Below, in pieces: positions 46,384 to 46,636 of a stretch of 64,000 nucleotides of DNA. Location of the stretch: positions 2,351-66,350 of the forward strand of contig DXWI01000013.1 of the NCBI GenBank assembly GCA_019416935.1, given 5' to 3'. Each line of letters begins with the position of its first letter. Position 1 is the stretch's first letter. Source of the DNA: Clostridiales bacterium (GTDB taxonomy: Bacteria > Bacillota > Clostridia > Christensenellales > CAG-138). The notes beneath the pieces are model-generated. The model worked only from the letters and a program-made list of their open reading frames with translations. It did not search any database and had not been told where the DNA came from. The position numbers were made by a program, and so were the translations under genes.

Positions 46384-46636
46384 GAGCCCGGCGAACTTTC
46401 GTCGGGCTCAGGCCGTCAAAAAACTAAGTTTTTTGACGGGATTTCTGCTGTGGCAGGGATATACTTGCAGGTTTGACGTTGCAAACCTGCAAGCAAGGTG
46501 TCAAAAGCAGCACACAGGTCGCTGCTTTTGACGGATTATATGGTTCTTCCTGCGCAATTCTCGTGCGCGAACCGACGGCGCGGTTTGCCCGCTGCTTTTT
46601 CAACAGACTGAGCCCGGCGAACTTTCGCCGGACTTC
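46384..46636 (+). repeat. multi-hairpin intergenic element, copy 1 (strand denotes orientation relative to copy 2)
   Basis: Series of perfect or near-perfect hairpins at 46384-46409, 46413-46439, 46464-46493, 46500-46532, 46542-46573 and 46610-46635. Homologous to the reverse complement of 51464-51730. Confidence 0.7.

Follow-up and report, generated by a model that had tools for sequence, protein, structure and literature searches.

A hairpin-rich intergenic element of gut Clostridia placed among IS1182-type MITEs by its ends and its duplicated target stem-loops

The spacer between the convergent genes for a DUF368 protein and phosphofructokinase (PFK) in this Clostridiales contig consists almost entirely of hairpins, and the question is whether it holds a structured RNA or a repeat that moves. 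An earlier note, made from the letters of the window (the whole 64,000-nt stretch of DNA analyzed here), described a discrete, ORF-free element of about 250 nt that could not be placed in an RNA or repeat family, with a second, inverted copy in the same kind of convergent context. The hairpins that it listed, from 46384-46409 to 46610-46635, are all present. The copy 1 block (46375-46645) folds as a single strand at −131.5 kcal/mol, compared with −86.0 ± 4.6 kcal/mol for dinucleotide shuffles (z = −9.97), and the copy 2 block (approximately 51464-51732) gives z = −10.24. Copies 1 and 2 are inverted relative to each other, with arms at 46406-46585 and 51527-51706 (180 nt, 79% identity). Both lie in spacers of convergent ORFs, 45236-46192 (+) and 46650-47903 (−) for copy 1 and 50690-51421 (+) and 51838-52851 (−) for copy 2, and the discrete repeated element is thus borne out by two copies in the window.

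The half-site GTCAAAA, proposed in the same note as a sequence-specific recognition motif, occurs 23 times in the window, compared with 6.2 ± 2.5 expected, and 9 of the 23 occurrences are inside copies 1 and 2. The proposal holds well, since the motif makes up the terminal inverted repeats (TIRs) and the subterminal sites common to a large family described below. Mechanical ORFs do overlap the block, in sequence that is missing from conspecific strains. At the gathering threshold, no Rfam covariance model matches either window copy or any of five other subtypes (ten loci), and the lax matches to the copies are all far under the gathering scores of their own families (E at least 0.39). The sole gathering-level matches in the whole window are a raiA RNA at 8257-8469 (+, 180 bits) and the bacterial RNase P class A RNA at 52924-53268 (−, 266 bits). 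No IS1182-type transposase is found in the 64-kb window by tblastn with six IS1182 transposases, in agreement with the remark that no transposase is nearby.

Duplicated target hairpins at two variable sites

The positions of the outer hairpins should be noted, since they define the boundaries of the element. The ends of the element are inverted repeats of the form (C)AGNCYGTCAAAAAA, and the similarity between copies 1 and 2 ends, in the alignment, before the outer hairpins. These outer hairpins are direct repeats within each copy and are different between the two copies, with GAGCCCGGCGAACTTTCG[T/C]CGG... at 46384 and 46610 in copy 1 (23 of 26 positions match) and GAGCGTCCCCTTGAAGGGGACGCTCC... 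at 51472 and 51703 in copy 2. Inverted ends with directly repeated flanking hairpins represent transposon anatomy, in which an entire stem-loop of 26-30 bp makes up the target-site duplication. The element proper is therefore 200 bp rather than about 250 nt, and the hairpins at 46384-46409 and 46610-46635, formerly taken as parts of it, are a direct target-site duplication of the PFK terminator (Table 1). Each junction of both copies is ambiguous by 1 nt; the CAG...CTG reading of copy 1 is 46409-46610.

Table 1 Features of the two MITE copies and their target hairpins in the window
Feature	Position	Strand	Remarks
MITE copy 1	46410-46609	+	200 bp; missing in conspecific strains; inverted ends; aligns to copy 2 and five metagenome copies
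Copy 1 left TIR, AGGCCGTCAAAAAAC	46410-46424	+	Same end in >30 elements of other genomes
Left-end palindrome, CCGTCAAAAAAC-TAA-GTTTTTTGACGG	46413-46439		Two inverted GTCAAAAAAC sites; stem invariant in two subtype alignments
Short internal hairpin, CTGC/GCAG stem	46444-46458		
Internal hairpin 3, CTTGCAGGTTTG/CAAACCTGCAAG	46464-46493		Both partners differ among copies in three stem pairs
Internal hairpin 4	46500-46532		GTCAAAA/TTTTGAC at base
Internal hairpins 5 and 6	46542-46588		GGTTC..GCGCA/TGCGC..GAACC; overlapping GCGAACCG/CGCGGTTTGC
Copy 1 right TIR, CTTTTTCAACAGACT (reverse complement AGTCTGTTGAAAAAG)	46595-46609	+	
Copy 1 target hairpin, left copy, GAGCCCGGCGAACTTTCGTCGGGCTC	46384-46409		Distal PFK terminator copy
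Copy 1 target hairpin, right copy, GAGCCCGGCGAACTTTCGCCGGACTT	46610-46635		Nearest the PFK stop codon (46650)
MITE copy 2	51502-51702	−	201 bp; ends AGGTTGTCAAAAAAG (51502-51516) and GTTTTTTGACGGTCT (51688-51702)
Copy 2 target duplication, left, GAGCGTCCCCTTGAAGGGGACGCTCCTTTC	51472-51501		97% identical to 51703-51732
Copy 2 target duplication, right	51703-51732		

Many assemblies encode a PFK nearly identical to that of the window (P0002, listed at 100% identity), and ten of these loci (L241-L250) were compared. Alignments at the empty sites cover six loci at the PFK/DUF368 spacer and five at the copy 2 site, and at least six conspecific assemblies lack the element at both sites. The empty PFK/DUF368 spacer is GGAAAACGG-GAGCCCGACGATAGTTCGTCGGGCTC-TTTGCATAC, a single hairpin without an element; the window has a hairpin, 200 bp, and a hairpin again. 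The target of copy 2 is the hairpin separating a DUF421 gene from a tRNA-synthetase gene, and this site is empty in conspecific strains, with one GAGCGTCCCCTT[G/C]AAGGGGACGCTC hairpin. Because empty alleles are found at both sites, both copies are insertions that vary within the species, and the presence and absence at orthologous sites demonstrate the mobility of the MITE. After the right copy 2 hairpin, the window contains 13 extra nt (CTCTCTTTCTGGC, within 51728-51745) that are missing from all the empty-site strains (around 2400 in L241); this excess stems either from an independent indel or from an excision that was imprecise.

The copy 1 target lies 15 nt beyond the PFK stop codon, and TTTGCAT comes next in the empty allele. 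A hairpin just past the stop codon followed by TTTGCAT identifies the target as the PFK terminator. In the window, the left hairpin (46384-46409) retains the original TTTGCAT tail on the minus strand, while the PFK-proximal hairpin is left without a T-tail. This arrangement suggests that transcription of the PFK gene runs on into the MITE, so that copy 1 is probably a 3′ extension of the PFK transcript, which would end at the distal hairpin.

Some features of the neighboring hairpins were also observed. A separate 12-bp GC-rich hairpin at 46203-46231, right after the stop codon of the DUF368/VCA0040-like gene, is probably the own terminator of that gene; copy 1 entered the PFK hairpin and not this one. 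The PFK hairpin varies among strains with its structure kept, one stem pair being A-T, G-C, G-T, or A-C, and the loop center of the copy 2 target hairpin flips between G and C. In another locus, L024, the loops of the two flank hairpins are exact reverse complements.

A family with common ends and unrelated bodies

A scan for the end palindrome GTCAAAAAAC-N2-6-GTTTTTTGAC in one genome per species gave at least 118 loci, and most of the matches listed come from Oscillospiraceae, Christensenellales, Faecousia, and other Clostridia MAGs. Only the end hairpin of approximately 30-40 nt is common to the window core and these 118 genome loci in BLAST comparison, indicating that the bodies are unrelated. 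At more than 30 loci, an element of approximately 160-370 bp has the end hairpin on its left, and its right end lies 130-350 nt away from this hairpin. The layout of the family is a site hairpin, T(G/C)AGRCY-GTCAAAAAAC-nn-GTTTTTTGAC, the body, TTTTTTGAC-A-NN-CTGA, and the same site hairpin again, and the bodies between the same ends are of at least six types without sequence relationship to one another. The search for further copies advised in the earlier note thus leads to dozens of insertions with the same ends in other Clostridia, and a subtype-specific pattern finds five more copies of the window subtype itself in two metagenome assemblies, two of them at contig ends.

The flanks of the family should be compared with those in the window. 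In 32 elements defined by their ends (from the 118 genome loci and the window), the flanks repeat a hairpin that is specific to each site, mostly in direct orientation. The duplication is 24-36 bp long in the 23 cleanly bounded cases and spans the stem-loop, usually terminating no more than 2 nt from its feet. On the reverse strand of L090 (1600-2170), one terminator is present in three copies with two different MITEs between them, one of the 192-nt type and the other of a ATCGAAAAAC-ended type; judging from this order, the locus is the trace of two successive insertions at one terminator. A 37-bp minimal element in L055 (3268-3304) consists of two ends head to head (CCAGTCTGTCAAAAAACAAGTTTTTTGACAGACTGAG) between two different hairpins. 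Unlike hairpins on the two sides are also found in other elements or ISs (L276, L292, and L303). These cases tell against a simple duplication model, which accommodates them only through later recombination between copies or assembly chimeras, the likely causes. The right flank hairpin of L276 (9081-9283) is the left flank hairpin of L269 (13316-13410), which points either to copies that have recombined or to mis-joins in a chimeric short-read assembly in this case. MITE copies also break short-read assemblies, the contigs L254 and L269 ending inside the repeat.

Outside the genome set, matches are few. On viral contigs, the end pattern gives mostly chance matches and one MITE (L135), and the hairpin pattern gives only two loci. 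In the plasmid collection, neither the window copy nor the 192-nt subtype has a match, and another subtype matches only pMM35_01 of Vescimonas fastidiosa, in which the 90 kb examined contains no transposase with MITE ends. This 860-kb "plasmid" carries rpsF, infB, nusA, and recG and is therefore really a chromid or a chromosome arm. Another repeat family, of the GTCATTGCGAG...GGCAATCC type, is found in it (L240, 27759-27930 and 30967-31340), and a related sequence is also present in the body of the L135 MITE.

Hairpin-duplicating MITEs are thus common in uncultured gut Clostridia (Oscillospiraceae, Christensenellales, Faecousia, and Vescimonas), and as far as we searched the literature, no earlier description of this widespread group was found. 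Such MITEs can pass for RNA genes; their known ends and hairpin duplications permit masking and use as strain markers.

Resemblance to IS1182 insertion sequences and a proposed mode of insertion

Direct repeats of 0-60 bp and palindromic targets are given for the IS1182 family in ISfinder. IS1272/TnSha1, members of this family, target terminator hairpins by structure (PMC4923244, PMC5678879), and the palindromic targets of the family are attributed to Siguier 2015 in PMC4923244. Using ISKpn6 (pKpQIL) as a seed, we found an IS1182-type gene in L099 and, from it, more than 1100 relatives in gut metagenomes, all of which have the domain set PF05598, PF01609, and PF13751. The transposases of three of the five gut-Clostridia lineages compared score 434-442 bits with NF033551 (NCBIfam), whose cut-off is 270, and belong to the IS1182 family. 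The left ends (IRL) of the gut-Clostridia IS1182 elements are CAGACCGTTGACAAAG, CAGCCCGTTGACAAAG, CAGGCTGCTGACAAAC, and CAGCCCATCGACAAAC. The IRL is embedded in a hairpin and terminator-like hairpins adjoin both ends of these elements, and the IS1182 element in L304 has a perfect 26-bp hairpin duplication, ACGGGGCGTTCTTGGAACGCCCCGTT. Four plasmid elements, PGAP-annotated or identified by tblastn (B. subtilis, Brevibacillus, C. botulinum, and C. estertheticum), have the ends CAG[G/A]CTGT[C/T]GA...CTG and are flanked by direct stem-loop repeats of approximately 16-30 bp. Taken over the full-length IS1182 elements, from gut Clostridia and plasmids alike, the ends read CAGRCYGTYGA....

The MITE ends are identical to the IRL and IRR of nine IS1182 elements at 8-14 of 16 positions, with 9-13 of 16 for the left TIR of copy 1 and IS1182-family IS ends. 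Common to all of them are 5′-(C)AG, then N-C-Y-G/A-T, and then an A-rich tail. Even the nearest IS ends have 2-5 mismatches to the MITE ends over 16 positions; the ATCGAAAAAC-ended variant MITE of L090 and the IS of P0122 share 14 of 16. [quoted passage not shown] They are, however, approximately 1.6-1.9 kb long, whereas the window element is 200 bp without a transposase gene, and the sampled ISs have GTTGACAAA or GTCGAGAAA where the window element has an A6 tract (GTCAAAAAA).

The resemblance of the ends, the stem-loop target with its duplication, the small size without a transposase gene, and the mobility all agree with an IS1182-derived MITE. We consider it very likely that the window element is such a MITE, presumably inserted at the base of extruded hairpins by a DDE transposase acting in trans. 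The assignment to IS1182 is drawn from the similarity of the ends and from the insertion behavior shared with elements classified by NCBIfam or PGAP. With its TIRs, its target duplication, its presence and absence among strains, and its IS1182-like ends, the unplaced RNA or repeat of the earlier note is a placed member of the IS1182-type MITEs, neither a new RNA class nor a categorically new element.

An autonomous IS with exact ...GTCAAAAAA ends is found neither in the window, the 118 genome loci, approximately 120 viral loci, and 32 metagenome loci, nor in the 90 kb examined in Vescimonas fastidiosa or the IS1182 lineages sampled, six in number. No partner emerged from end pairs 600-4000 bp apart, from ORFs of at least 300 aa beside end hairpins, from hairpin direct repeats 0.7-3.5 kb apart, or from an end-agnostic search for a second flanking-hairpin copy within 6 kb, where the longest element is 572 bp; the IS1182 protein profile has no relatives on viral contigs. 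The apparent long end pairs in L055, L184, L234, and L257 are chance matches or two separate small elements. In L099, 6.3 kb separate a MITE from an intact IS1182-family transposase gene, whose left end, however, is different. In L298 (approximately 430-460), a solo fragment of an IS1182 end (TCAGACCATTGACAAACCC) has a hairpin on either side, and a full IS copy follows just downstream.

We propose the following mode of insertion. An IS1182-family DDE transposase provided in trans would bind and cut the geneless element at its ends (C)AGNCYGTCAAAAAA; the left end is doubled as a palindrome, and more GTCAAAA sites lie inside. The transposase would pick its target by shape and not by sequence, namely a stem-loop rich in GC, in most cases the intrinsic terminator that follows a gene. 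Bound to the GTCAAAAAA sites, it would capture a target extruded as a hairpin or cruciform and join the two 3′ ends of the element to opposite strands, one at either foot of the hairpin. When repair fills the two single-stranded gaps, the whole stem-loop would be copied, leaving the element between two terminator copies. In the window, copy 1 would have entered the PFK terminator and copy 2 the DUF421/tRNA-synthetase hairpin in this manner.

The lengths of the duplications are consistent with this geometry. With a stagger of 24-36 bp, the two attack sites would be approximately 8-12 nm apart in B-form DNA but neighbors at the base of a cruciform. Strand transfer there would also make the duplication length follow the hairpin, in contrast to the fixed length of IS1202. 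The duplications range from approximately 16 to 36 bp across the MITEs and the annotated plasmid ISs and track the stem-loop, as hairpin-foot transfer predicts. In a published model (PMC5678879, Fig. 13, path b), the whole stem-loop is predicted to be duplicated when the element ends are joined to the 5′ feet of the cruciform. Since a stem-loop is retained on each side, insertion should do little harm and may be nearly neutral, which would account for the accumulation of copies at gene ends. Each insertion nevertheless puts a stem-loop on both sides and approximately 200 nt of structured sequence after a gene, and could alter 3′-end formation and mRNA stability in many genes.

Among known systems, IS1272/TnSha1 of staphylococci are similar in that they recognize the target as a hairpin, in many cases a proven terminator, and without any consensus in its primary sequence (PMC4923244, PMC5678879). 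IS1272, however, deletes or replaces the stem-loop without duplication (path a), whereas the window element duplicates it (path b, PMC5678879), as found at both window sites. The hairpin duplication thus complements the hairpin-deleting behavior of IS1272. An IS1182-derived MITE has already been named, MITEPye1 of Paracoccus yeei (PMC11578231). It is likewise non-autonomous and intergenic with predicted long stem-loops, and its inverted repeats match those of ISPye18 (IS1182 family) (PMC11578231). Unlike the window element, MITEPye1 has 4-bp direct repeats, no hairpin target, a host of another phylum, and a low copy number. The MITEs collected here are natural evidence for shape-guided target choice in the IS1182 family and form a data set for this under-studied trait of its transposases.

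Structure of the body and alternative readings

The internal hairpins of the body vary in a manner that keeps pairing. Among seven copies of the window subtype, three pairs of hairpin 3 change on both sides (TTGCAGG/CCTGCAA, GGGTAGG/CCTACCC, and GGGCAGG/CCTGCCC), and seven pairs have changes on both sides in 22 copies of the 192-nt subtype. An alternative stem of hairpin 4, AAAACCGGCG/CGCCGTTTTT, is found in copy 2 and L280, and the hairpin 4 module is also present in the variant MITE in L090. The compensatory changes speak against a simple MITE model, because a passive MITE would not need hairpins. The asymmetry between G-U and C-A counts in the stems is too small to separate a constraint at the RNA level from one at the DNA level. 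The body might be a functional structure, either single-stranded or cruciform DNA for a structure-reading transposase or RNA for the host transcript or for its own transposition, though we regard this as rather unlikely. If true, the target stem-loop would set the duplication length in this family, which would then represent a natural integration system guided by shape and independent of sequence.

The same changes, seen in two subfamilies, together with the very stable predicted folds (z approximately −10), could also be expected of a structured ncRNA gene or a cis-acting 3′-UTR element (a stabilizer, a terminator array, or an sRNA), the repeats being paralogous RNA genes. The proximal PFK hairpin without a T-tail, which probably puts the element in the 3′ extension of the PFK mRNA, would suit this reading as well. 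We nevertheless judge it quite improbable, since no subtype has an Rfam family, the element is present or absent among strains with near-identical PFK, unrelated bodies lie between the same inverted ends, the target is duplicated at each cleanly bounded site, and no promoter-like site is found in the copy 1 or copy 2 region. An independent RNA gene is rejected on the mobility and the ends, and an RNA-level side effect, which may exist, would leave the anatomy unexplained.

Small repeats such as Correia/NEMIS, RUP, BOX, ERIC, and REP/BIME have duplications of 2-9 bp or none, and none of them is known to us to duplicate a whole terminator. They are similar to the window element in being small, intergenic, hairpin-rich, multi-copy, and capable of lying in 3′-UTRs (PMC3184786, PMC10969869). 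Since the window element consists almost entirely of hairpins, is intergenic at gene ends, and has a body that keeps structure over sequence, as a single-strand intermediate would select, we considered a REP/BIME-type or IS200/IS605-derived palindrome (REPIN/PATE) moved as ssDNA by a Y1 HUH transposase. To our knowledge, REP/BIME and IS200/IS605-derived palindromes have no target duplication and no terminal inverted repeats. The clean insertions, in contrast, all have a direct duplication of 24-36 bp and inverted ends of 15-16 nt, and the ends match those of IS1182 DDE elements; with the target duplication present, this reading is rejected as very improbable.

Another enzyme that makes long duplications is scarcely credible, whether a Cas1-like casposase or integrase duplicating a palindromic repeat or an IS1202-family transposase. 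CRISPR repeat duplication covers a length range that overlaps 24-36 bp. The length also overlaps that of the IS1202 subgroup, whose long target duplications are 27-28 bp (10.1101/2022.12.17.520857). However, IS1202 elements have TGT termini and a fixed repeat length (27-28, or 15-17 or 5-6 bp), their transposases belong to an unrelated family, and they are not associated with hairpins, whereas the ends here are (C)AG and the length of 24-36 bp varies with the hairpin, so that an IS1202-like origin is rejected. No Cas1 or IS1202 gene is seen near any copy, and full-length IS1182 elements directly show the same behavior as the MITEs.
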